Counted from the first letter of the stretch, positions 3,604 through 28,060 are shown. The stretch: 64,000 nucleotides of DNA from Candidatus Iainarchaeum sp. (GCA_040755695.1 JBFMAK010000001.1:128637-192636); one strand, 5' to 3'. The notes: a model not told the origin generated them from the letters alone. Numbers and translations are program-made.

Positions 3604-5115
3604 TTATTCCACCATCACCTTTTGCCTTTTCAGCCAGTCCAGGTTATAGGAGAAGAGGTCTCTTGCATCGTTTATTCCTAGCTTGAACATGGCGAGCCTG
3701 TCGGCCCCAATGCCCCATGCCAGCGCCCTTCCTTTAATTCCAAGGTTTTCTGTAATTTCCGGCCTGAAGATTCCTGCCCCGCCAAATTCAATCCAGCCCA
3801 TTTCAGGGTGAAGGGCATTCAACTGAACCGAGGGTTCTGTGAAAGGATAGTAATCAGGAATGAATTTTATTTTTTCTGCGCCTGCAATCTCTTCAGCGAA
3901 TTCTTTGAGCATTCCAAGCAGGTGCCTGAAGGTGACAGTAGAATCAACAATGAAGCCTTCCAGCTGGTTGAATTCAATTAAGTGCGTTGCATCAACCACG
4001 TCAGGCCTGAAACATCGCGCAATAGAAAAATATTTTCCTGGCAGTTCAACCCCCTTCACCAGCTGCCTTGCGCTGTGCGCTGTGCCGTGGGCGCAGGGCA
4101 TAAGCCTTGAAGCAATCCTCTCACTCCAATTGTATTGCCAGCCCCTACTCTTTGAAATGCCTCCATTCTCGTGGGCTGCCTTCATTTTTTCCACAATCTT
4201 TTTGTCCGGAAGCAATCCGAACTGGGGCCTTTTAAGCTGGTATGTCTGCGTCCAGTCCCTTGCAGGATGGTTTTGAGGCTGAAACAATACATCAAAGTTA
4301 TAGAATTCCTGCACAATCAAAGGCGAAGGCATTTCCTTGAAGCCTAATTCAATCAATTTTCTTTTCATTTCATCCAAAAACTTAAGGTAAGGCTGCTTTT
4401 TTCCCGGAAAGATCTCAGGCACAGGCTCCTGGATATTGTAATGTCTTTCTATTACTTTTACATCATCTTGTGCTTGAATTTTTAATCCTTTTTCTTGCAT
4501 TAAATTTATTCCTTTCATTCCTTGTTCTGTAATTGAAGCAGATCCGGTTTTTTTCTCTTTTATTCTGATAAAGTCTTTTCTCTGCTGGAACTCCTTCAGA
4601 ACATTTTTTTCTTCTGCATTAAATTGTTCCAAGGGTAATTCTTTGTTAGAAATTTTCTTGAGCAGTTTTTCTTCCGGGATTTCTTCTTTAAGCGCATTAA
4701 ATCCTTTCTGCGTCAATTTTAATTTTAATGTGCCTTCCTTTTTTACTTCGATCCATTGCTTTCTTTTTGCCTGTCCTAAAGAAATGTTTAATTCATCTTT
4801 TCCCAGGGATTTTATTTCTTCTATTGCCTTCCAGTCCCTTGCATTCAATTCCTTGGCCAGCTTTTTTTCCGGGAGGCCTTCCCTCAATGCCTTTAATCCT
4901 TCTTCGCCTAAAAGAATAAATTCCTTTTTTTCTGTTCTTGTTTCAGCCAGGTTCTTCTGCTTGAGCCACTGCATTGACCTTCTCGCGCTGTCAATATCCA
5001 TGCCTGCTCTTTTAGCCAGATCCTCTGCGTTCAATTCCTTTTTTGCCTCGCTCAATGCCTTTAATGCCTTTCTCTCGATTTCGCTTAATTCACTTAACAC
5101 CTTCTCCAAGGTCAT
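3604..5115 (-). CDS. pheS: Phenylalanyl-tRNA synthetase alpha subunit
   Basis: Class II aaRS core with motif 2/3-like 'FRPDVVDATHLIEFNQLEGFIVD' and 'GAGIFRPEI...GIGADRLAM'. Long N-terminal helical/winged-helix extension as in archaeal and eukaryotic PheS. Confidence 0.9.
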   Translation of the reverse strand: MTLEKVLSELSEIERKALKALSEAKKELNAEDLAKRAGMDIDSARRSMQWLKQKNLAETRTEKKEFILLGEEGLKALREGLPEKKLAKELNARDWKAIEEIKSLGKDELNISLGQAKRKQWIEVKKEGTLKLKLTQKGFNALKEEIPEEKLLKKISNKELPLEQFNAEEKNVLKEFQQRKDFIRIKEKKTGSASITEQGMKGINLMQEKGLKIQAQDDVKVIERHYNIQEPVPEIFPGKKQPYLKFLDEMKRKLIELGFKEMPSPLIVQEFYNFDVLFQPQNHPARDWTQTYQLKRPQFGLLPDKKIVEKMKAAHENGGISKSRGWQYNWSERIASRLMPCAHGTAHSARQLVKGVELPGKYFSIARCFRPDVVDATHLIEFNQLEGFIVDSTVTFRHLLGMLKEFAEEIAGAEKIKFIPDYYPFTEPSVQLNALHPEMGWIEFGGAGIFRPEITENLGIKGRALAWGIGADRLAMFKLGINDARDLFSYNLDWLKRQKVMVE

Positions 5116-5182
5116 AAAATCACTCTTTTACTTTAATAATTACTGAAAGTCTATTTAATTCTTTATCAATTATTATTTTAAT

Positions 5183-5563
5183 ATGAAAGAATTCGTGATG
5201 GATTCAGCTGTAATCCTGAACAACTTCAACTTCAGGTTTTCAGGCGAAGAAAAATACTACACCACAAATGAAGTATTGGACGAATTGATTGACTTTAGGA
5301 GCAAGAGACTCGTGGAGGCAGGACTAAAGCAAGGCCACATTGAAATAAGGGAGCCCTCAAGAGATTCAATCAAAAAAGTTGAAAGGGCAGCATATGCCTT
5401 AGATGCAAGGCACAGGCTCTCTAAGGCAGACATTTCAATCATTGCCCTTGCATTCGAATTAAAGCTTCCCCTTCTCTCAGACGACATTCAAGTCCAGAAG
5501 GTGTGCATTCAATTAGACCTTCAATTTGATTCAGTTTTCAGGGAAAGAATTGAAGAAAAATGA
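5183..5563 (+). CDS. PIN-domain protein (putative ribonuclease)
   Basis: 'YYTTNEVLDEL', 'ADISIIALA' and 'LLSDD' fit the acidic-residue pattern of PIN/VapC-like folds. Confidence 0.5.
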   Translation: MKEFVMDSAVILNNFNFRFSGEEKYYTTNEVLDELIDFRSKRLVEAGLKQGHIEIREPSRDSIKKVERAAYALDARHRLSKADISIIALAFELKLPLLSDDIQVQKVCIQLDLQFDSVFRERIEEK

Positions 5564-5575
5564 AGATGGTTTTGA

Positions 5576-6100
5576 TTGGAAGAAGAAAAAAAGGGAACAG
5601 AAGCTAAGCCTCTTGAATATTATGTGGGGGTATTGTTCGCTACCACAATAAAAAAAATGCTTAAGGCAAGGTCTCCTTTTAAAGAAAAAATTATTAGAAC
5701 AGCTGAATTAACTGTAAGCAACCAGATAAAGCAAATCCACGGACAAGTTGGCCTGAATGAATGGAATAATTCTGCAGGAATAAAAAGAATTGAACTGTTA
5801 AAAAAATACGGTTTCCGCTTGAGCCCCCATCAAATAGGCCTTTACCACAAGGCGCACCAATTATTGAACAGGTTAACAGAACTTCAAAGGAGAGCAAGAG
5901 GCGAAACAGATCAAAGGCTTAAGGAGCTTTACAGGGATGCAATAATTTCAGCAGAAGACAAAGGCCTTTCATCAAGAAAATTCCTTGAATTAAACAAACA
6001 AATCAATTTGGTCAGAATCCAGAAAGCAGAAAAATTACTGCAACTCAGAAAAGAGAAAAGAAAAGAAAAAATGCCCCCTAAAATCCACAGGGAAAGATGA
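5576..6100 (+). CDS. Hypothetical basic protein, possibly partnered with the upstream PIN gene
   Basis: Starts 13 nt after the PIN ORF. K/R-rich C-terminus. No recognised motif. Confidence 0.35.
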   Translation: MEEEKKGTEAKPLEYYVGVLFATTIKKMLKARSPFKEKIIRTAELTVSNQIKQIHGQVGLNEWNNSAGIKRIELLKKYGFRLSPHQIGLYHKAHQLLNRLTELQRRARGETDQRLKELYRDAIISAEDKGLSSRKFLELNKQINLVRIQKAEKLLQLRKEKRKEKMPPKIHRER

Positions 6101-7093: not shown

Positions 7094-8299
7094 TCATCTA
7101 AGCATTATCTTTACTACGTCTCCGTCTTTGAGTGAATGTTCTTTTCCTATCTTTTGTCCTGTCCTGCAGTCTATTGCTGCAACAAACCTTTCAACGAATT
7201 CAGTGTGGATTTTTCCAGCCAAATCAATTGCATTGGAGCCCTTCCTCAAAAGGAAAGAATCTGGTAATACTGCCCCAGTACCTGAAGTCCACTTATGCTG
7301 GTCCTGCACGGGATAGACAGCAATCAAGTCCAGTAGGCTGAAGGCTGTTTCGTTCACTGCTTCCTGCACGCCTGTACTTCCATACTTCTCCAGTATGTGC
7401 GTTCTAATAAATTCTAATGCGTGCTTTTGTTTCTCAGGGATATCCTGTTTCAATAACTTAAATTCCTTTTCTCCTGGAACATATTCAATTATGTCTGCCT
7501 TTGCTGCCTTCCTTAAAGCTAACTCAGATTCAGCGCTGCAGGCCACAATCTTTTTTTCAGGGAATTCCTTCTTCAGCCTCTCAAAGTTCTCTTGTGCTCC
7601 TTCAACATCAATCTTGTTTGCTGCAATCAAGATAGGTTTTGATTTCTCCCTTATCTTCTCGCTGAATTCAAGTAATGCTTCCTCGTTCCAGGAATCAGGT
7701 TTTTCATTGAAGTCTTCTTTCTTTATTACGCCTTTCACGTCCTCTTCCGTAATGCCCAATCCAGTCAGGTTTTTTGCTAATGCCTCATAAGGGCCTTTAG
7801 GGTCGAGTGAAGCCTGCTTTGAGATCTTCGCCCAATTTTTTGTGAGGATGCCTTTAATCCAGTGTGCAATCTCTTTCTCCAAGAATTTAATGTCCTGGGC
7901 AGGGTCGTGAGAGCCTCGCTGACAGGGATTTCCAATGGAATCAGTGACTCCCGCAATATCTAATACATGAATTAAACCTTGTGCTTGCATTAAATCTGAC
8001 ATAAAAGAATTGCCCATTCCTTTTCCTTGCCAACTACCTTCAATTAAACCAGCCACATCTAATAACTGAATTGGAATCAACCTTGTGCCATTAACACATT
8101 TACTATTAATGGGGTTGCATTGCTTCCCAAGATCTAAATGAGGGCATTTAGTATTTACATAAGCTGTGCCAGTGTTAGCCTTAATTGTTGTGAATGGCCT
8201 CATAGAAATTTCAACGTCAACAAGTGTCGCTGCACTAAAGAAGGTACTCTTGCCTGACGACGGCTTGCCAACACAACCTATTTGCATTAAATCCCACAT
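7094..8299 (-). CDS. Obg-family P-loop GTPase/ATPase (YchF/OLA1-like) with a C-terminal TGS domain
   Basis: G1 'GCVGKPSSGKST'. G3 'LLDVAGLIEG'. C-terminal TGS-like 'GDVVKIMLR'. Confidence 0.7.
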   Translation of the reverse strand: MWDLMQIGCVGKPSSGKSTFFSAATLVDVEISMRPFTTIKANTGTAYVNTKCPHLDLGKQCNPINSKCVNGTRLIPIQLLDVAGLIEGSWQGKGMGNSFMSDLMQAQGLIHVLDIAGVTDSIGNPCQRGSHDPAQDIKFLEKEIAHWIKGILTKNWAKISKQASLDPKGPYEALAKNLTGLGITEEDVKGVIKKEDFNEKPDSWNEEALLEFSEKIREKSKPILIAANKIDVEGAQENFERLKKEFPEKKIVACSAESELALRKAAKADIIEYVPGEKEFKLLKQDIPEKQKHALEFIRTHILEKYGSTGVQEAVNETAFSLLDLIAVYPVQDQHKWTSGTGAVLPDSFLLRKGSNAIDLAGKIHTEFVERFVAAIDCRTGQKIGKEHSLKDGDVVKIMLR

Positions 8300-8323
8300 A
8301 GATTTAAATTAAAAAAGTTTTAA

Positions 8324-9535
8324 TTAAGTAACTGGTTTTAGGCAGTATTTTCCGCCGTTATTAGAAAAAATGCCTCTGTTCACAAGAGTTAATATTTTCT
8401 TCCTTATTTTATAAGGATGTAGGTCAATTTTTCCCGATAGATCTTTTACTCTGAAAAAACCTTTTTCCTTTGCAAGAAGGGTTCCTTCTTCACAGATTTT
8501 ATTTAAAACATCTTTAGTAACAACTTTTTCTCTCAATTTAATCATTAAATCAAGTGTTTTTCTTTTTCTACTGCAATAAAACCCAATCTTATTGCTGAAA
8601 TTTAATATAGATTCCTTTTTACCTATATCAATCTCCCAAAACGCAGTTACATACCCTTTTTTTCTTTTGATTATCCTTTTAAGTCTTAGATTGGACTCTA
8701 CTAAAAAATTATCACATAAAATTTTTCTTGCATCGATTAATATTTTGGGCGGTTTAATGTGTTGCCTATTTTCTTTTGGGATTTTATTTATACTGTATGG
8801 TTTGCCTATTTTCATTTCAGATAAAAAACGTTCATTAATTGCTTTTGTACACTCATTGGCTTGTGATAGCCCAATCTTGTAATTAGTTGTTTCAGCCCAC
8901 CCCTCATCATCAAAAAATTGTTGGAGAAATGCTTTTTGAATTTCAATAGAATTATCCATTATAACCTTTGGAATTCCAATGCCTTGATTTAATTTTTTGC
9001 CTGTCGGGACTCCTGTTATTTTTAGAACTCTTCTAACCATTCTGCTGGCTATCAAATAAGGCACTCCTTCATCAGAAATCCTGTTGCTAATTTTAACATC
9101 TCCAAAAATGTTTTTAATTTCTCTTTCAACTTTATTTAGCAATTCAGAATCGCTGTTTTTGTATTCAACATGTGCTTCATTTATGGTTCCATCCCCCATT
9201 ATAGCAGCTAAGATTGTAGCCATAGAAATACTGTTCAATTTTATTGGTAATTTAACTCCTTTGCTCCAAGCAATTTCTTCAACTTTGTCTTCTGCAATCA
9301 AATAACCAATGCCTAAAAAATCAAGAATCTTCTTTAATCCCCCAACTGTTAAACTCGTGTTATGAAAATAATTGAAGATTGTTGCTTTGCTCACCCTTAT
9401 TGCATAAGCCAACTTTGATTTTGAACTAGCTTTTAAGATTGCCTTATTAATTAGGTTTTTCCCAAAATCTTTTTCCAGCCTAATCCTTACAGTGTTGGGT
9501 TCGTCAAACCAATGATACTCTGTTTTACAGTCCAA
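8324..9535 (-). CDS. Free-standing LAGLIDADG-family homing endonuclease with an N-terminal HTH
   Basis: Two LAGLIDADG-type motifs, 'ILAAIMGDGTI' and 'FLQQFFDDEGW'. XRE-like HTH 'SKLAYAIRVSKATIFNYFHN'. AT-rich. Not embedded in any host ORF. Confidence 0.6.
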   Translation of the reverse strand: MDCKTEYHWFDEPNTVRIRLEKDFGKNLINKAILKASSKSKLAYAIRVSKATIFNYFHNTSLTVGGLKKILDFLGIGYLIAEDKVEEIAWSKGVKLPIKLNSISMATILAAIMGDGTINEAHVEYKNSDSELLNKVEREIKNIFGDVKISNRISDEGVPYLIASRMVRRVLKITGVPTGKKLNQGIGIPKVIMDNSIEIQKAFLQQFFDDEGWAETTNYKIGLSQANECTKAINERFLSEMKIGKPYSINKIPKENRQHIKPPKILIDARKILCDNFLVESNLRLKRIIKRKKGYVTAFWEIDIGKKESILNFSNKIGFYCSRKRKTLDLMIKLREKVVTKDVLNKICEEGTLLAKEKGFFRVKDLSGKIDLHPYKIRKKILTLVNRGIFSNNGGKYCLKPVT

Positions 9536-21708: not shown

Positions 21709-22638
21709 TTACAATTCAAACTCCATTAAGTCTTCTGATACAATGGAATTAGCGAAAACCTGCCTTGCCTCTGTCTCGAACTTCCTTGGGTCTTTATGCC
21801 TTGGAGAAAGATGGAATAAAACCAGCTTCTTCACTTTTGCTTTTTCTGCTATTCCTGCGGCCTGCATTGCAGTGCAATGGAAGGTATGCTTTGCCCTCTT
21901 CTTCATTTCCTCCAAAAAAGAGGATTCATGGAACAATAAATCGCTGTGCTCTATTGCTTTAACGTAATGGCTTGAAGGCAGGGTGTCGCAAATTACTGCA
22001 ATCTTTTTTCCTATCTTCTTATTTTTTGAGTCAAGCACTTGCTCTGGCTTAATTCTTCTTCCTTTAAATTCAATTGTTTTTCCTTTCTGGAGTTCCCCCC
22101 ATAAAGGGCCTTCAGGTATGCCTAAAGCCTGTGCCTTCTCCCTCAAGAATTTTCCCTGTGAATCCCTTTCCTTGAAGATGTAACCATAGCAGGGAATGTC
22201 ATGATTAAGCCTTACTGCAGAAACAATAAAGTTTTCTTCATTCAATAAAACGCCTTCCCTTACCTCGATTGCCTTGAGCTCGAAATTCACTTTAAGCAGG
22301 CTCAATTCAATTGCCTTCTTTACTTTCTCTTTCACTCCTTTCGGGCCGAAAATGAATAAAGGTGAATCCCTTTGATGCATTGACATTGTGGCAATCAATC
22401 CAGGTAACCCTAAAATGTGGTCTCCGTGAAAATGGCTTAAAAAGATTGCGTGAACCTTCATGTAAGACACTTTTGCTTTCATCATCTGCCTTTGAGTGCC
22501 TTCCGGACAATCAAACAAGTAATTCAATCCATTGAAATTAATGTTAATTGCACTCAAGTTCCTGTCCTTTGTTGGAGTGCTGCAGCTTGAACCCAATACT
22601 GTTGCCTTCAATTCCTTCGCCTTCCTAATAAAAACCAA
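21709..22638 (-). CDS. rnz: Ribonuclease Z (tRNA 3' endonuclease)
   Basis: 'FLSHFHGDHILGLPGL' (HxHxDH). Size and C-terminal His motifs match short-form RNase Z. Confidence 0.8.
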   Translation of the reverse strand: MVFIRKAKELKATVLGSSCSTPTKDRNLSAININFNGLNYLFDCPEGTQRQMMKAKVSYMKVHAIFLSHFHGDHILGLPGLIATMSMHQRDSPLFIFGPKGVKEKVKKAIELSLLKVNFELKAIEVREGVLLNEENFIVSAVRLNHDIPCYGYIFKERDSQGKFLREKAQALGIPEGPLWGELQKGKTIEFKGRRIKPEQVLDSKNKKIGKKIAVICDTLPSSHYVKAIEHSDLLFHESSFLEEMKKRAKHTFHCTAMQAAGIAEKAKVKKLVLFHLSPRHKDPRKFETEARQVFANSIVSEDLMEFEL

Positions 22639-22725
22639 ATCAATTTAAAATTATTCTTGCAATAAATTATTATAATACAGTATAATTTAAAACATCTTTT
22701 TTTAATAAAAATTGAGGGCTCACAA

Positions 22726-25134
22726 ATGGCTGAAAGAAGAGATGATGCATTGAATTTCAATTCAACTGCAGAGCTTAAGGTGTCAGAAAAACTAGTAGAC
22801 CAAGTAATAGGACAGGACAATTCAGTTGAGATAGTGAAGAAGGCTGCAGCGCAGAAGAGAAACATGCTTTTAGTAGGCCTTCCAGGCACAGGGAAATGTT
22901 TGACTGCTGATACTGAATTGCTTCTCGGAGATGGTTTAATTATTTCCTGCGAAGAGTTATACCCCCAACTTTATGATGCATCAGAAGTAGAATCAAAAAA
23001 TGAAAAAATGGTTGTTTTGAAAGTATCAAATCTTTCACCTAATGTTTCTTCTTTGGTCAAAGGCGCGAAGGAAAAATTTTGGATTAGAGATTCAAGATTG
23101 TTAAGAATCAGCAAAGAAAAATTTTCCGGGGATATTCTTTTAATTAAAACAGCGTCAGGTAGAAAAATTAAGGTTACAGAAAATCACAAACTTCTATCAG
23201 TTGATGAAAATGGTTTTCTGTTAAAAAAAGCTAAAGAATTAAGCAGTAGGGATCATTTAGCTGTTCCAAGCAAATTGACTTTGTTGGATGAAAAGCCTAC
23301 TGAAACAAATGTTTTATTGCCTTTACCTCCAGAAGGAATTTTTAAAAAAATTAAGGTTCCAACTAAACTAACAATAGAAATGGCAGCATGGCTTGGGCAC
23401 TTGATTGCAGAAGGCAGTTTTTGCAGGAATCAGATAAGATTCACTTCCGCTGAACAACATAAAAGAGAGTTTTTTAAGGAATTAACAGAGCGGATTTTTG
23501 ATATTAAACCTTATATGAAAGGAAAAGATGTTTTCATTAATAGCGTTGAACTATTAACTTATTTGCGTGAGATTCTAAGAATAAAAACTACAAATGCAAG
23601 AAACAAAGAAATTCCAGTTATTATAATGCGAGCCCCTCTACGAATAATTAAGTCATTTTTAGCGAGATTATTTGCAGATGACGGTTCATTTTATAGAAAT
23701 TGTGTGGAGTTGGCTTGTAGCAATGAAAAAATGGCTTCTCAAATTCTTTATTTATTGCTTCATTTTGGCATTGTAGCAAGATTAAAAGAAAAAAAAGATT
23801 CTAAAACAAAGTGGACCTATTACAGAATTTTTATTCAAGGAGAATTTCTTGATGATTTCATGAAGAAAATTGGTTTTGTTAATAGAAAAAAATTTGGAAA
23901 ATTGCAGAAATATATCTCAGAAAAAAAGTTTAATACAAATGTTGATATAATCCCTTTTGTTGGAAAACTGATTAAGCGGGCACGGTTGGCGAGGTCTTTA
24001 ACAGTTGACAATTTCAGTCCCATTAATTCAAGCATGATTTGCAGGTATGAAAATGGAAAAAGAAATCCAAGCAAGAAAGCTCTCATAAAAATTGTAAATG
24101 TTTTAGATAAAAGATTGCCTTTGAAAGAAGATGACTGCTTACCCTTACTAAAAACTCTTGCTTTTTCAAATATATTTTGGGATAAAATTATTGAAGTAAA
24201 GGAAGTTAACTATGAGGGATATGTTTATGATATAGAAATTGAAGCTGATAGTCATGTCTTTGTTGCAGGTTTTGGTGGTTTGTTTTCACATAATTCAATG
24301 CTTGCGCAGGCAATGGCAGAAATTCTTCCTGTAAGCGAATTGCACGACATTCTAATTTACCCTAACAGGAGCGACCCAAACAATCCAAGGGTGAGAGAGG
24401 TAAAAGCAGGCGAAGGAAAAAAGATTGTGCAGAAAGCAAGAATGGAGTCAAGGGCAAAGGAAGACAACGCAAGATTCATGGGATTCATTCTGCCATTAGG
24501 ATTCTTTATTATAGCAGGCTTTATGTGGAGGCCTTTGAACTGGATTCCGGATGTAGTGTATGCTGCGACATTAATTTTAGGCGGCTTTCTAATGATTGGA
24601 TTTGCTTTAGGCAGCCAGATGAGAATGCGCTCTGGAACAGGAGGAGCACCAAAACTATTGGTTGACAATTCAGGGAAAAAGACTGCTCCATTCACTGAAG
24701 GCACTGGGGCACGAGCAGGAGCACTGCTTGGTGATGTGCGTCATGATCCACTTCAATCGTTTATTGACGAAAATAAATTAGTTGTTAAAAGTAATGGTTT
24801 TTCAGATGTTTTGAGCTTTGAATCACTGTGGAAAATGATGACTAAAAAATACCCTGAACTAATAGAAAAGCATGAAAATGGGTATGAAGCAATTGTTTTT
24901 CCTGAAAATGAAAAAGTATTCACTGTAGGCTTTAAAGACGGGAAAGTTGTTGAATCAAGGATTCTTTCCATAAATAGGAAACCCTATGATGGCGAGGTTA
25001 TAGAAATTTCAGCTGAAAACTCAAAACTTACAGTTACCCCTGAACATAAAATTTTTACTGGTTTTAAAAGCAAAGAAGCTGAAAAAATTTTAAAAAACGA
25101 CAATTTGATTAAATTGGTCAGTAAAAAAAGCTGA
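22726..25134 (+). CDS. lonB: LonB protease fragment 1: N-extein (Walker A, TM hairpin, up to 'LGDVRHDPLQ') containing intein 1, ending in the N-terminal half of intein 2
   Basis: 'LLVGLPGTGK|C...' resumes as '...SHN|SMLAQAMAEILPV' (archaeal LonB 'GxPGTGKSMLxQAMAELLP'). TM insert 'FMGFILPLGFFIIAGF...'. 'GARAGALLGDVRHDPLQ' followed by 'SFIDEN...TVTPEH...' and a stop. Confidence 0.8.
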   Translation: MAERRDDALNFNSTAELKVSEKLVDQVIGQDNSVEIVKKAAAQKRNMLLVGLPGTGKCLTADTELLLGDGLIISCEELYPQLYDASEVESKNEKMVVLKVSNLSPNVSSLVKGAKEKFWIRDSRLLRISKEKFSGDILLIKTASGRKIKVTENHKLLSVDENGFLLKKAKELSSRDHLAVPSKLTLLDEKPTETNVLLPLPPEGIFKKIKVPTKLTIEMAAWLGHLIAEGSFCRNQIRFTSAEQHKREFFKELTERIFDIKPYMKGKDVFINSVELLTYLREILRIKTTNARNKEIPVIIMRAPLRIIKSFLARLFADDGSFYRNCVELACSNEKMASQILYLLLHFGIVARLKEKKDSKTKWTYYRIFIQGEFLDDFMKKIGFVNRKKFGKLQKYISEKKFNTNVDIIPFVGKLIKRARLARSLTVDNFSPINSSMICRYENGKRNPSKKALIKIVNVLDKRLPLKEDDCLPLLKTLAFSNIFWDKIIEVKEVNYEGYVYDIEIEADSHVFVAGFGGLFSHNSMLAQAMAEILPVSELHDILIYPNRSDPNNPRVREVKAGEGKKIVQKARMESRAKEDNARFMGFILPLGFFIIAGFMWRPLNWIPDVVYAATLILGGFLMIGFALGSQMRMRSGTGGAPKLLVDNSGKKTAPFTEGTGARAGALLGDVRHDPLQSFIDENKLVVKSNGFSDVLSFESLWKMMTKKYPELIEKHENGYEAIVFPENEKVFTVGFKDGKVVESRILSINRKPYDGEVIEISAENSKLTVTPEHKIFTGFKSKEAEKILKNDNLIKLVSKKS
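22897..24294 (+). mobile_element. Intein 1 (466 aa, cis-splicing, contiguous) in the Lon Walker-A P-loop; contains a LAGLIDADG endonuclease plus an HTH
   Basis: Block A 'CLTADTELLLGDG'. Block B 'IKVTENHKLL'. 'LGHLIAEGSF' and 'LFADDGSF'. HTH '...ICRYENGKRNPSKKALIKI'. Blocks F/G 'GYVYDIEIEADSHVFVAGFGGLFSHN' then +1 Ser. Cys codon at 22897-22899; Asn codon ends at 24294. Confidence 0.85.
24757..25131 (+). mobile_element. Intein 2, N-terminal splicing half (IntN, 125 aa), terminated by a stop codon
   Basis: Inserted between Lon 'DPLQ' and 'SGGLG'. Block A-like 'SFIDENKLVV'. Block B 'KLTVTPEHKIF'. Stop at 25132-25134. Confidence 0.7.
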
Positions 25135-25186
25135 CTACTGCAAGTTTGTTTCAGAGCCTGTTTGTACCATAATCAATTTAAATAAT

Positions 25187-25888
25187 TTGAATGGCAGTTT
25201 ATGTATGAGTTTTCTGTTTACGCATGAATGGATTGCAAAGTTAGTCTTAGGGAAGCTTAAAAAGAAAGCATTAATTTCAAACTATAATAATATTGATGAC
25301 TATTTCTTTGGGGCTATTGCCCCTGACATAAGGTACATAAATAATTCATCCAGAACACTAACACACGAGATTGAAGGAAAGTATTCAATATTTGAAACTT
25401 CTAAAAAGAATAAATACTCAAAGGCGTTTCTTGCAGGATTTGAAACCCATTTGGTTGTTGATGACGCTTGGTCTAATAGGGAGAAATGGTTGGATGAAAG
25501 CATTTATGAATTTTACAGTGTTAATGCAAACAACCTTGCTCAAAAATTTGCTTTGTATTTTCTTGTCGATGATTATTTTCAGAGCGAGGCTTACTGGTTT
25601 TTTCCTTTTGAATGCGCTGGCAATATTTTCCGTGCTAACGATTTGCAGCTCTTAATTGATTTAGGCTTTAATCATAAAGATATTTTATTGTATAAATCTT
25701 TGGCGGCCGTTTATATGAGAGAGCCCGGCATAGACACAATGAATATTTTTAATTTTGTTCCGGGAAAATTAGATGAAATTTTGATTAGAACAATATTGGA
25801 ACAAAAATCTACGTTAACATCGTTCTTAAAAGAATTCAAAAAAATTTCAGTAGAAAAAAGTCTGACTTTTTTGGAGAGCCATTTATGA
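25187..25888 (+). CDS. Independent ORF inside the intein-2 gap; hypothetical, possibly a metal-dependent hydrolase or nuclease (phospholipase C/P1-nuclease-like motifs)
   Basis: Likely ATG start at 25205 ('MSFLFTHEWIAKL'). His/Asp-rich motifs 'THEW', 'AIAPDIRY', 'FETHLVVDDAWSN'. No LAGLIDADG motif. AT-rich. Different frame from both Lon fragments. Confidence 0.35.
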   Translation: MNGSLCMSFLFTHEWIAKLVLGKLKKKALISNYNNIDDYFFGAIAPDIRYINNSSRTLTHEIEGKYSIFETSKKNKYSKAFLAGFETHLVVDDAWSNREKWLDESIYEFYSVNANNLAQKFALYFLVDDYFQSEAYWFFPFECAGNIFRANDLQLLIDLGFNHKDILLYKSLAAVYMREPGIDTMNIFNFVPGKLDEILIRTILEQKSTLTSFLKEFKKISVEKSLTFLESHL

Positions 25889-26000
25889 GCCCTAAAATGA
25901 AAATAATTCTTGCAATAGCTTTGGTTAGTGCTACAATATATATCTACCTATTTATCAGCCTTATGATTTTTTCATTCAATTTGGTTTTAGCTGAATAAAA

Positions 26001-27941
26001 TTGCATGTTAACACTAACTATTTTAACCTTTTTCAATTAATATTTTTTCATGATGCTATGAAAGAAAAAAATTTAAAGAGGGTTTTTCCCAAAATTTCAC
26101 GAAGAAAATTTCAAGGCCACGTATACAATGTTACAACCGAAACAGGAAACTTGTTTGTAGAAAATGTACTTGTTCACAATTCAGGCGGCCTTGGAACGCC
26201 CCCTCATCTTAGAGTAGAGCCAGGGCTAATTCACAAGGTTTCAGGGGGCGTCTTGTTCTTAGATGAAATTGCAACCCTCTCACCAAAAGCACAGCAGGAG
26301 CTCCTTACAGCAATGCAGGAGAAAAAATATTCTATTACAGGCCAAAGCGAATTAAGTTCTGGTGCGATGACTAAAACGGATCCTGTGCCCTGCTTTCCGG
26401 CAGAAACCTGTTTGCTGACTGCCAAAGGAAATGTAAGCATGGGGGCATTTATTGATTCAATTTTATCTAAAAATTATGATAGAGTTGCTGTAGAGAATGG
26501 AGTGGAGGTTTTTGATTTGGATGAAAAAGAGACTATTATTACTTATTCAAATAGTAAAATTATTCCTTCAAATGCAGAAAGAGTTTATAGACGTAAATAT
26601 TCTGGAAAGGTTCTAAAAATTAAATTTGATGATGGAACTGAATTAATTGCTACCCCTGATCATCCAATAAAAACAGTTAATGGTTTTGTAAAAGCAAAAG
26701 ATTTGAAGGTTAATGATGTTATTGAAGCAACGGGGGATCTCGTAATAATTGATGAAAAAGCAATTGTCAACACCTATTGTAAGGATAACCAGAGAATTGC
26801 TAACACATTTAATAAGTGGATAGCTTCAGGCAAAAAACTTTCAGCTAAAGAGTTAGGTGTTGATTATAAAACAATTTTTTCATGGAAAAAAGGTTCCATA
26901 CCGCGTGCACTTAAAAGTGTCAATCAACTCAACAGAAAAAAACTTTTACCGTTAAACCTTAATGATGAGAGAGTGCCTAAGATAGCCAGGGTTGTTGGAG
27001 CCCTGTTTGGCGACGGCGGAATAGATGGCAGAAGACTTTCAAGAGTATATTTCTCTACAGATTCAAACAGTATGGATGATTTAAATGAATTTAAGAATGA
27101 TATTCTATCAATATTTGGAGAGGAAATTAATTCAGCAATAACCATTAAAAAAATTACTTCTAAGGGAGGGAGTGGCTTGGATTTATCTATTAATAATTCG
27201 TCCGTTGCCCGTTTTTTCTATGCTCTGGGTGTTCCAAAAGGAGATAAAGTTTCGCAGTCCTTTACAGTACCTTTCTGGGTTAAATTATCAGACAAACTAA
27301 AGAAAGAATTCTTTTCAGCTTTGCTTTGTTGTGAATTATATGGAAATATTAGAAGCAGTCAAGATACTATTTCCTTTGTTATGGCTAAATTAAAGAAATT
27401 TGAGAAAGAACACATTGAGTTCTTGAATGAAATTAGAAATTTTTTATTAAAAAACAGAGTTGAAGTGAAAGAAGTAGAACAGGACAAAGAATATTTTAAA
27501 GCTAAAGGATTACCTAACCCCGAGACTGCTGGGGCTTACTTGTTTAAACTAAATTCAGGTTATAAAAATATAATTCAATTAGCTGACATTATTAACTTTT
27601 ACTATGCAAAAAACAAAAAATCAGCTATACCCAACGTAGTGAAGAATGGTAAAATATTTATAGAGTCTCAGAAACACCTAGATAGTTTAAAGGAAGAAGC
27701 ATTGATGTTGAGAAATGCTGGAAAGACCATTCGTATAATAGCAAAAGAAACGGGATTGTGTAAAAATACTGTCTGGAAAATAGTTGGAAAGACATACAAC
27801 AAATATTCCAAATTAGACAGAAAAAGAGTTTTTGGTTTATTGGGTAAAGGTATAATACCAAAAATTGTTGCCAAAAAACTTGAAATTCCTTATACTACTG
27901 TTCTTTATTGGAAGAATAATTATTTTAGTGAGGAGTCATGA
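26001..27941 (+). CDS. lonB: LonB fragment 2: intein 2 C-terminal half, a 70-aa Lon extein (Walker B/sensor), then the intein 3 N-terminal part with endonuclease
   Basis: The likely true start is ATG 26058 ('MKEKNL...'). '...[22 protein letters not shown]|[33 protein letters not shown]...TDPVP|[13 protein letters not shown]...'. Confidence 0.75.
26058..26180 (+). mobile_element. Intein 2, C-terminal splicing half (IntC, ~41 aa)
   Basis: Blocks F/G '[20 protein letters not shown]' followed by +1 Ser of 'SGGLGTP'. Confidence 0.75.
26391..27938 (+). mobile_element. Intein 3, N-terminal part (516 aa): splicing blocks A/B, a LAGLIDADG endonuclease and an HTH; ends at a stop overlapping the next start
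   Basis: Block A '[13 protein letters not shown]'. Block B '[12 protein letters not shown]'. LAGLIDADG '[13 protein letters not shown]'. HTH '[24 protein letters not shown]'. TGA at 27939-27941. Confidence 0.75.
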
Positions 27942-28060
27942 TGTTTTCCAAGATTACTAAAAAGATTACAGGTATTGAAGAAAGAGATTTCAATGGTTAT
28001 GTGTACAATATAAAAACAGAAACAGGAACTTATATTGCCAATTCAATTGTCGTTCATAAT
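27938..28060 (+). mobile_element. Intein 3, C-terminal splicing half (IntC, 41 aa)
   Basis: Blocks F/G ending 'VVHN' with +1 Cys of '[10 protein letters not shown]' (LonB 'PVPCDF..VAAGN'). Confidence 0.75.

Follow-up and report, generated by a model that had tools for sequence, protein, structure and literature searches.

A probable trans-splicing lonB gene of a Diapherotrites archaeon with an unrelated two-gene operon inside a split intein

Split inteins with their halves encoded at distant loci are known from cyanobacterial DnaE and from the PolB of Nanoarchaeum equitans. Dassa, London, Stoddard, Schueler-Furman and Pietrokovski (2009, Nucleic Acids Research, PMC2677866), who discuss these cases too, used the term 'fractured genes' for genes whose halves are joined by a split intein and have another gene between them. 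Their loci were phage-like and encoded enzymes of DNA synthesis and repair, behind a spacer of 27-51 nucleotides (nt) the gap contained nothing but a homing endonuclease of the GIY-YIG or Vsr-like kind, one locus (gp41-7) was without an endonuclease, and a stepwise gene-breaking model was proposed. Ten contiguous LonB inteins have furthermore been listed for Euryarchaeota (Novikova et al. 2016, PMC4760082), and neither split Lon inteins nor inteins of Diapherotrites were described in the literature collection that we searched. Here we analyse a stretch of 64,000 nt (the window) of Candidatus Iainarchaeum sp. (GCA_040755695.1 JBFMAK010000001.1:128637-192636), a metagenome-assembled genome of Candidatus Diapherotrites / Iainarchaeia, in which an archaeal LonB, a protease of the essential type, is specified on the + strand (22726-29155) by three successive open reading frames (ORFs) interrupted by three inteins. 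We consider it probable that this lonB is a working, trans-splicing fractured gene in which an unrelated two-gene operon hitch-hikes inside the second, split intein.

The first ORF (22726-25134) encodes extein 1, intein 1 and extein 2 followed by the 125 amino acids (aa) of the N-terminal half of intein 2 (IntN2), and it closes with a TGA stop at 25132-25134. After a gap of 923 nt (25135-26057) a second ORF opens with an ATG at 26058 and runs through 41 residues of the C-terminal half (IntC2) into SGGLGTPPH..., which in Lon is the usual continuation of DPxQ. The two halves are separate ORFs, each fused in frame to its own extein, the insertion site is ...HDPLQ/SGGLGTP... (here and below a slash marks the junction), and IntN2, the ORF in the gap and IntC2 each lie in a different frame. 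An earlier reading of the sequence alone, here called the original prediction, had described intein 2 as split by a stop at 25132 and by an insert with its own ORF, with IntC2 starting at 26058. This holds, as do the coordinates given for the 125-aa IntN2 with its SFIDEN and TVTPEH motifs and for the three different frames, and intein 2 is likewise encoded as two separate ORFs in 23 of 23 loci in which both halves are visible. The central part of the locus is as follows:

24295-24756, + strand: LonB extein 2, 154 aa, with membrane-anchor helices, ending in ...GDVRHDPLQ
24757-25134, + strand: IntN2 and its TGA stop, 125 aa (24757-25131), Ser1, SFIDEN start, TVTPEH, no cysteine
25164-25184, + strand: promoter-like motif of the cassette, GTACCATAATCAATTTAAATA, resembling a B recognition element (BRE) and TATA box, with the TATA at about -28 from the hydrolase ATG
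25205-25888, + strand: cargo gene 1, 227 aa and stop, predicted to be a metal-dependent hydrolase with the fold of zinc phospholipase C and S1-P1 nuclease ('PLPC-like')
25885-25998, + strand: cargo gene 2, a hydrophobic membrane micropeptide of 37 aa with a single helix
26014-26028, + strand: CTAACTATTTTAACC, a TATA-like element 30-44 nt before the ATG of IntC2
26058-26180, + strand: IntC2, 41 aa, ATG start, followed by Ser+1
26181-26390, + strand: LonB extein 3, 70 aa, SGGLGTPPH...TDPVP

The first residue of intein 2 is Ser in the window and either Ser or Cys across all loci from which both halves were extracted (19 of 19), the T-P-E-H of block B is invariant in an alignment of 15 sequences, and IntC2 is highly conserved, with an invariant terminal Asn, a penultimate His, Ser or Cys and a +1 Ser in all loci. 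The window copy combines Ser1 and Ser+1 and has a cysteine in neither half. When fused, IntN2 and IntC2 align colinearly with P0108, a full-length Lon from a metagenomic, distant relative with a contiguous mini-intein at the same site, and this alignment places the break in the loop that houses endonuclease domains in inteins. Searched against PDB, a profile of IntN2 and IntC2 furthermore retrieved the MJ0781 intein (2jmz, 9.7e-12) and NrdJ-1 (1.8e-6).

The same split is found in relatives of the window. In a genome scan with one genome per species, Lon, intein and cassette pieces were mapped onto loci, and the cassette was found between IntN2 and IntC2 of lonB in seven further species-level genomes; another 47 loci came from a metagenome scan for which IntC2 served as the key. 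Both halves are visible in 23 loci, and each of these has a split intein 2 (contiguous in 0 of 23), with an IntN of 122-138 aa followed by a stop, an IntC of 39-49 aa starting from Met and gaps of 287-4621 nt, and many database proteins terminate exactly after IntN or begin with IntC. Since the split is the same in 23 independently assembled loci, it is due neither to chance nor to an artefact of assembly. The window does stem from a metagenome-assembled genome, which might suggest that a chimeric join or faulty binning had put an unrelated gene into lonB, but the order IntN2-cassette-IntC2 recurs in independent NCBI, JGI, ENA and Logan assemblies at 41-82% protein identity, and the flanking synteny that the window has in common with L001 and L028 (an RNase Z-like gene upstream and DUF373 downstream) likewise speaks against a chimeric join, so that the chance of such an error is in our view negligible. 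By its own terms the original prediction would have been refuted by close relatives with a contiguous intein 2 and no ORF, next to a window copy with inactivated blocks; instead the close relatives are split and carry the ORF, blocks A, B, F and G are intact, and contiguous versions of intein 2 are found only in distant relatives.

Removal of the three inteins in silico at the predicted junctions gives a seamless LonB of 645 aa, which matches the TIGR00764 LonB profile with 854.5 bits (equivalog cut-off 516.6) in a single stretch over profile positions 2-607 of 608. The remaining parts of the gene are:

22726-22896, + strand: LonB extein 1, 57 aa, with the Walker A sequence ...GLPGTGK at its C-terminal end
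22897-24294, + strand: intein 1, contiguous and in frame, 466 aa, CLTADTE...FSHN/S, with LAGLIDADG_3 endonuclease and HTH_3 domains
26391-27941, + strand: N-terminal half of intein 3 (IntN3) with LAGLIDADG-type endonuclease and helix-turn-helix (HTH) domains, 516 aa, starting CFPAETC, stop at 27939-27941
27938-28060, + strand: C-terminal half of intein 3 (IntC3), 41 aa, TIGR01443 (intein_Cterm), followed by Cys+1
28061-29155, + strand: LonB extein 4 and stop, 364 aa, with the AAA+ lid and S16 protease domain

Intein 1 (Pfam Intein_splicing 1.4e-28, LAGLIDADG_3 2.3e-15) is inserted in the Walker A site (GTGK/C...HN/S) and is missing from most related lonB genes, in which GKSMLAQ is uninterrupted. 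Intein 3 (26391-28060), the N-terminal half of which matches Intein_splicing (9.7e-13) and HTH_23, is also split, since the IntC3 ATG at 27938 overlaps the IntN3 stop (ATGA); this break follows the endonuclease domain and is conserved in L019 and L051. With inteins 2 and 3 both split and intein 1 contiguous, LonB is encoded in three pieces, the last of which holds Pfam Lon_C (2.4e-34), LonB_AAA-LID and a TIGR00764 match in extein 4. The neighbours of lonB are cellular housekeeping genes (RNase Z-like upstream, DUF373 downstream, a tRNA synthetase and RNA polymerase subunit L), and no match in phage records was found that would point to a phage or viral origin of the locus.

If lonB is indeed a working fractured gene, IntN2 would be made as the tail of the first Lon polypeptide and IntC2 as the head of the second, the halves of intein 2 would associate post-translationally, and protein trans-splicing would join the Lon pieces by a peptide bond. 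Mature LonB would then be put together from three polypeptides, with one intein spliced in cis and two in trans, and the 923-nt gap would take no part in splicing and would instead represent a self-contained cassette with a promoter-like element of its own.

Alternatively, lonB might be a pseudogene or yield unspliced fragments, in which case there would be no mature LonB or only a non-covalent assembly of its pieces. The stop codons within two inteins and the insert of 0.9 kb would fit such a fate, as would the extra damage in the Lon N part of L028, and DPANN archaea have reduced genomes in which gene loss is tolerated. However, all Lon and intein segments are open and conserved in amino acid sequence in 23 of 23 loci from many different assemblies, the catalytic residues of both halves of intein 2 are invariant, the break lies at the canonical position of split inteins, giving halves of about 125 and about 40 aa, and the deduced spliced protein is a full-length LonB. 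Furthermore, approximate ratios of nonsynonymous to synonymous change (dN/dS, Nei-Gojobori estimates) are 0.05-0.36 despite near-saturated synonymous change, namely 0.05-0.08 for the Lon exteins, 0.2-0.36 for IntN2, 0.14-0.17 for IntC2, 0.11-0.15 for the hydrolase and about 0.13-0.17 for the micropeptide. Judged by these substitution patterns, the intein 2 halves and the Lon exteins are under purifying selection, and we regard a defunct or unspliced lonB as unlikely.

Several points do weigh against a working fractured gene with an operon as cargo. The dN/dS values are rough, since dS is near saturation in most comparisons, and the Lon N part of L028 lacks about 22 residues after Walker A and has a frameshift (7669-8642), which may mean that some loci are decaying or that the assembly of L028 is faulty. 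The match of the hydrolase to Pfam Zn_dep_PLPC (PF00882) is marginal, with 27.2 bits against a gathering threshold of 26.8 over residues 6-86 only and profile positions 1-93 of 167, and the hydrolase family appears to retain only the N-terminal metal-ligand set of classical zinc phospholipase C. Finally, it is from sequence that we infer the trans-splicing activity, the use of the promoters and the biochemical activity of the cargo.

Along its full length the 227-aa protein of the first cargo gene has the same sequence as NCBI locus AB1467_00900, which lies on a 581-kb contig and whose annotation begins at an upstream TTG and so gives 233 aa; the original prediction had its coordinates (25205-25888) right but its length wrong, since the 228 aa stated are 227 aa and a stop codon. 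The 67 homologues share 52-82% identity and are nearly all about 227 aa long, and those labelled with an organism are all from Diapherotrites or from an unclassified 'archaeon'. In an alignment of 30 members H7, D31, H54, H82, D86, D122 and D123 are invariant and all present in the window copy, and there is no conserved C-terminal His pair. The guess that the protein might relate to phospholipase C / P1 nuclease was a good one in view of the PF00882 match and of the top structural matches, which are phospholipases, and the all-alpha fold of the PLC/P1 type is found. A Foldseek search with its AlphaFold model (predicted local distance difference test score, pLDDT, 86.5) was without a match, and the sequence profile of the family retrieved no solved structure. 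As for S1/P1 nuclease, neither membership of Pfam S1-P1_nuclease nor nuclease-specific features were found. We can conclude that the hydrolase belongs to the phospholipase C / P1 nuclease fold as a divergent representative, and it is predicted to be cytoplasmic.

The ATG of the micropeptide gene overlaps the hydrolase stop by 4 nt (ATGA), and a hydrophobic ORF of 37-45 aa with the same overlap is found in 25 of 26 homologous loci, its C-terminal motif being conserved as ...(F/Y)xYNFLTAVD / SFNLVLAE. That a hydrophobic mini-ORF exists here had been correctly foreseen, but the 33 codons assigned to it at about 25902-26000 start from an internal ATG and the gene really comprises 37 codons at 25885-25998. 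The coupled micropeptide and a conserved upstream motif make the insert a self-contained, conserved bicistronic cassette. It was likewise correct that the ORF in the gap is independent and no LAGLIDADG relic, since no LAGLIDADG match to Pfam was found within 25205-25885, whereas inteins 1 and 3 and the nest genes of relatives contain LAGLIDADG domains or motifs. The insert is bounded by neither direct nor inverted repeats and no Rfam family matched within 22000-30000, for which reasons we dropped both an RNA element and a transposon-like insertion flanked by terminal repeats as candidates; a phage-derived or defence role of the cassette was dropped as well, as there was no meaningful match in PHROGs, PADLOC or phage records.

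The upstream motif, GTACCAGAAnnAATATAAAT, lies about 20-45 nt before the hydrolase start and is conserved in nested and free-standing copies of the cassette. The box GTACCAGAA (25164-25172 in the window), which immediately precedes the TATA-like element of the hydrolase gene, occurs at equivalent positions in 20+ loci, and since it is conserved well beyond what a generic BRE needs, in nested and free copies alike, it may bind a dedicated regulator. The AT-rich sequence upstream of 26058 had been put forward as a candidate promoter of IntC-Lon, and the TATA-like CTAACTATTTTAACC indeed lies there, with a similar element at a like distance before IntC2 in L029, L025, L015, L016, L018 and L019 and in the empty nest of L069. 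TATA-like elements are also found before Lon-N and the cassette, 30-40 nt from the starts, a spacing typical of other genes in the window. The elements before Lon-N, the cassette and IntC2 may therefore serve as promoters, which would make expression of these parts plausible.

The space between the intein halves, here referred to as the nest, differs in its contents among relatives. In the usual order Lon-N with IntN2 and its stop is followed by a small conserved ORF, a free-standing LAGLIDADG gene (350-400 aa), the cassette, and IntC2 with the rest of Lon. There are nests with the endonuclease alone (e.g. L056 and L063), with endonuclease and cassette (L053, L065, L066), with endonuclease and a methyltransferase-like gene (L028, L032), with an HTH gene, a small gene and the cassette (L029), and with two cassette copies, a nucleotidyltransferase gene and no endonuclease (L018). 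In L033, L042, L043 and L047 only remnants of the cassette are left and the split intein persists, and the nest of L069, at 287 nt, is empty. The window nest is a reduced form, consisting of the cassette only and lacking the endonuclease; a DNA alignment with L029 and L001 revealed no remnants of a LAGLIDADG gene between the IntN2 stop and the cassette, aligning only the promoter-like motif. The cassette also occurs free-standing and unrelated to Lon (L002, L004, L006, L008-L014, L017, L020-L024, L030), in some cases in stable neighbourhoods, beside a Fic gene in one clade and inside glycosyltransferase/epimerase clusters in another, and several genomes carry two copies. An unrelated insertion, one of two possibilities raised in the original prediction, is supported, and the same gene pair stands at ordinary chromosomal loci in many relatives.

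Further genes were observed in and around these nests. The small ORF that many nests have directly before their free-standing LAGLIDADG gene encodes 35-49 aa (...LTDRELWIL...) and has no Pfam match (L015 5493-5726, L016 71-277, L019 5644-5844, L027 5705-5854, L028 8851-8958). The nest of L018, which also has duplicated cassette tails, encodes at 4935-5920 a nucleotidyltransferase (Pfam Polbeta / NTP_transf_2) and then a short ORF with a weak HEPN-like match, which together recall a HEPN-MNT toxin-antitoxin pair. L029, the closest locus by cassette identity, has at 633-1267, in the position taken by LAGLIDADG genes in other nests, an HTH protein of 93 aa and a protein of 99 aa in which a D...D-x-K pattern like that of PD-(D/E)xK nucleases can be seen by eye, with no significant Pfam match. 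One sub-lineage (L025 7688-8937, also L042, L044 and L047) has conserved nest ORFs of 214 and 207 aa between cassette and IntC2, neither with a Pfam or PADLOC match and the former membrane-associated as judged by eye. Finally, in L057 (1918-6090) and also in L046, L039 and L038 a diversity-generating retroelement, composed of a target protein (class III signal peptide, Lcl_C domain), a bAvd gene and a reverse transcriptase, lies together with a RhuM-family gene directly upstream of IntC2-Lon. The contigs of these four loci extend 2-6.4 kb upstream of IntC and contain neither Lon-N nor IntN2 over that length, so that the nest may be very large or the Lon halves may be unlinked.

Word-indexed protein searches with IntN2, or with IntC2 and the middle Lon piece, gave few and mostly fragmentary matches, and it was an exhaustive phmmer search with IntN2 that recovered relatives in which intein 2 is in another state. 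Besides P0108 these are P0115 and P0130, from distant relatives and taken to represent the ancestral state, which have contiguous inteins at the same site with a LAGLIDADG domain of the family of the free-standing nest endonuclease, and P0129, in which IntN is fused to the endonuclease and followed by a stop. The nest endonuclease shares its family with the domain found in contiguous Lon inteins and thus probably stems from the endonuclease domain of the intein itself. The parts of the locus have furthermore had different histories. L025 and L051 are 89% identical in LonC and 42% in the cassette protein, L015 and L065 are 90% identical in LonC, 38% in IntN2 and 77% in the cassette protein, the window and L029 are 78, 42 and 82% identical in the same three parts, and L001 and L029 are 93, 62 and 74% identical. 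In a neighbour-joining tree of the cassette protein the nested copies do not group together, and from this and the discordant identities it follows that parts of the locus have been exchanged between lineages.

The original prediction had offered as its other possibility that a non-LAGLIDADG endonuclease took over homing, in which case the 227-aa protein would be a nuclease that cuts lonB genes lacking the intein or the cassette and has spread the element after loss of the LAGLIDADG gene. The hydrolase is after all the sole enzyme left in the window nest, L018 has two copies of it and no LAGLIDADG gene, the family is multi-copy in several genomes and in varied contexts, and its history is discordant with that of Lon, as the window/L029, L001/L029 and L025/L051 comparisons illustrate. 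In most nests, however, the hydrolase adjoins an intact free-standing LAGLIDADG endonuclease that would suffice for mobility, and there are stable loci at which it stands on its own with no connection to an intein. It is also coupled to a membrane micropeptide, which better fits a membrane-associated enzyme than one acting on DNA, and it decays in the nests with cassette remnants while the split intein stays. In addition, its top structural matches are phospholipases, and it has no evident DNA-binding or specificity domain and is without a match in phage records, PHROGs and PADLOC. A homing role of the hydrolase is thus very unlikely, and the takeover of homing envisaged for it is not supported in view of the free-standing pairs, the adjoining LAGLIDADG gene, the decay in nests and the coupled micropeptide.

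Returning to a fractured gene with unrelated cargo, the ancestor would have been a contiguous intein with a LAGLIDADG endonuclease that came apart as IntN, a separate endonuclease gene and IntC. Between the halves a tolerated nest would then have formed, in which cargo genes accumulate, are exchanged and decay, and the window would represent a reduced state in which the endonuclease is lost and the cassette is left. Such an exchange of parts is what one would expect of gene conversion driven by a homing endonuclease, and it suggests that cargo can travel with the element. It is possible, if rather doubtful, that the gap acts as a gene-capture nest and that endonuclease-driven homing and co-conversion at lonB have moved its cargo between genomes, this cargo being the hydrolase-micropeptide cassette, the methyltransferase-like gene, the nucleotidyltransferase and possibly whole retroelements. 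The mosaic histories would fit this notion, since closely related Lon exteins are found with very different IntN2 alleles or cassettes, and the reverse. If it is true, split inteins would be vehicles for the horizontal transfer of ordinary genes and not only selfish insertions.

The locus extends the fractured layout from phage genes of DNA metabolism to a chromosomal protease gene of cellular DPANN archaea. LonB would be assembled here from three polypeptides by two different split inteins, for which we know of no natural precedent. One intein family here displays a contiguous intein with endonuclease, a contiguous mini-intein, an IntN-endonuclease fusion followed by a stop, separate IntN, free endonuclease and IntC, the same with cargo, a state with the endonuclease lost, an empty gap and possibly unlinked halves. 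With these stages in a single family, the route from contiguous to split intein becomes directly testable by comparison. The gap furthermore tolerates ordinary unrelated genes with histories unlike that of the host gene, and the locus as a whole should be of interest to specialists of inteins and mobile elements. Split inteins that lack cysteine are of value when proteins are to be ligated under oxidising conditions (PMC13014065), and intein 2 of the window, with Ser1 and Ser+1, would be a natural one and may be of practical interest for such ligation.

The architecture, called unusual in the original prediction, is less unprecedented than implied there, since a gene between split-intein halves is already known from the fractured genes of Dassa et al. 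2009 (PMC2677866). As in those, a conserved enzyme gene is halved by a split intein, both halves are on the same strand at one locus, another gene separates IntN from IntC, and the downstream half comes with a start and with control signals of its own, putative ones in the case of lonB. Unlike those, lonB lies in a cellular archaeal chromosome and its product is a protease, the endonuclease of relatives is of the LAGLIDADG type and not GIY-YIG or Vsr-like, and the gap holds non-endonuclease cargo in addition or, in the window, exclusively, without an endonuclease gene. The euryarchaeal LonB inteins share with those described here the host protein and the HINT domain with LAGLIDADG endonuclease domains; Lon intein 2 is however split into two genes here. 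The likeness to the DnaE and PolB inteins consists in the N half of about 125 aa, the C half of about 40 aa and protein trans-splicing as the expected mechanism, but the halves of intein 2 are adjacent with a nest between them. The hydrolase falls into the known superfamily of zinc-dependent phospholipase C and S1-P1 nuclease (PF00882; PDB 1ah7, 1olp, 8cqm, 5fb9), and it differs from classical zinc phospholipase C in that it has no signal peptide, no N-terminal Trp and no evident C-terminal ligand set and is paired with a membrane micropeptide. With regard to the fractured genes, it is the gene-breaking model of PMC2677866 of which the Lon intein family displays several stages.

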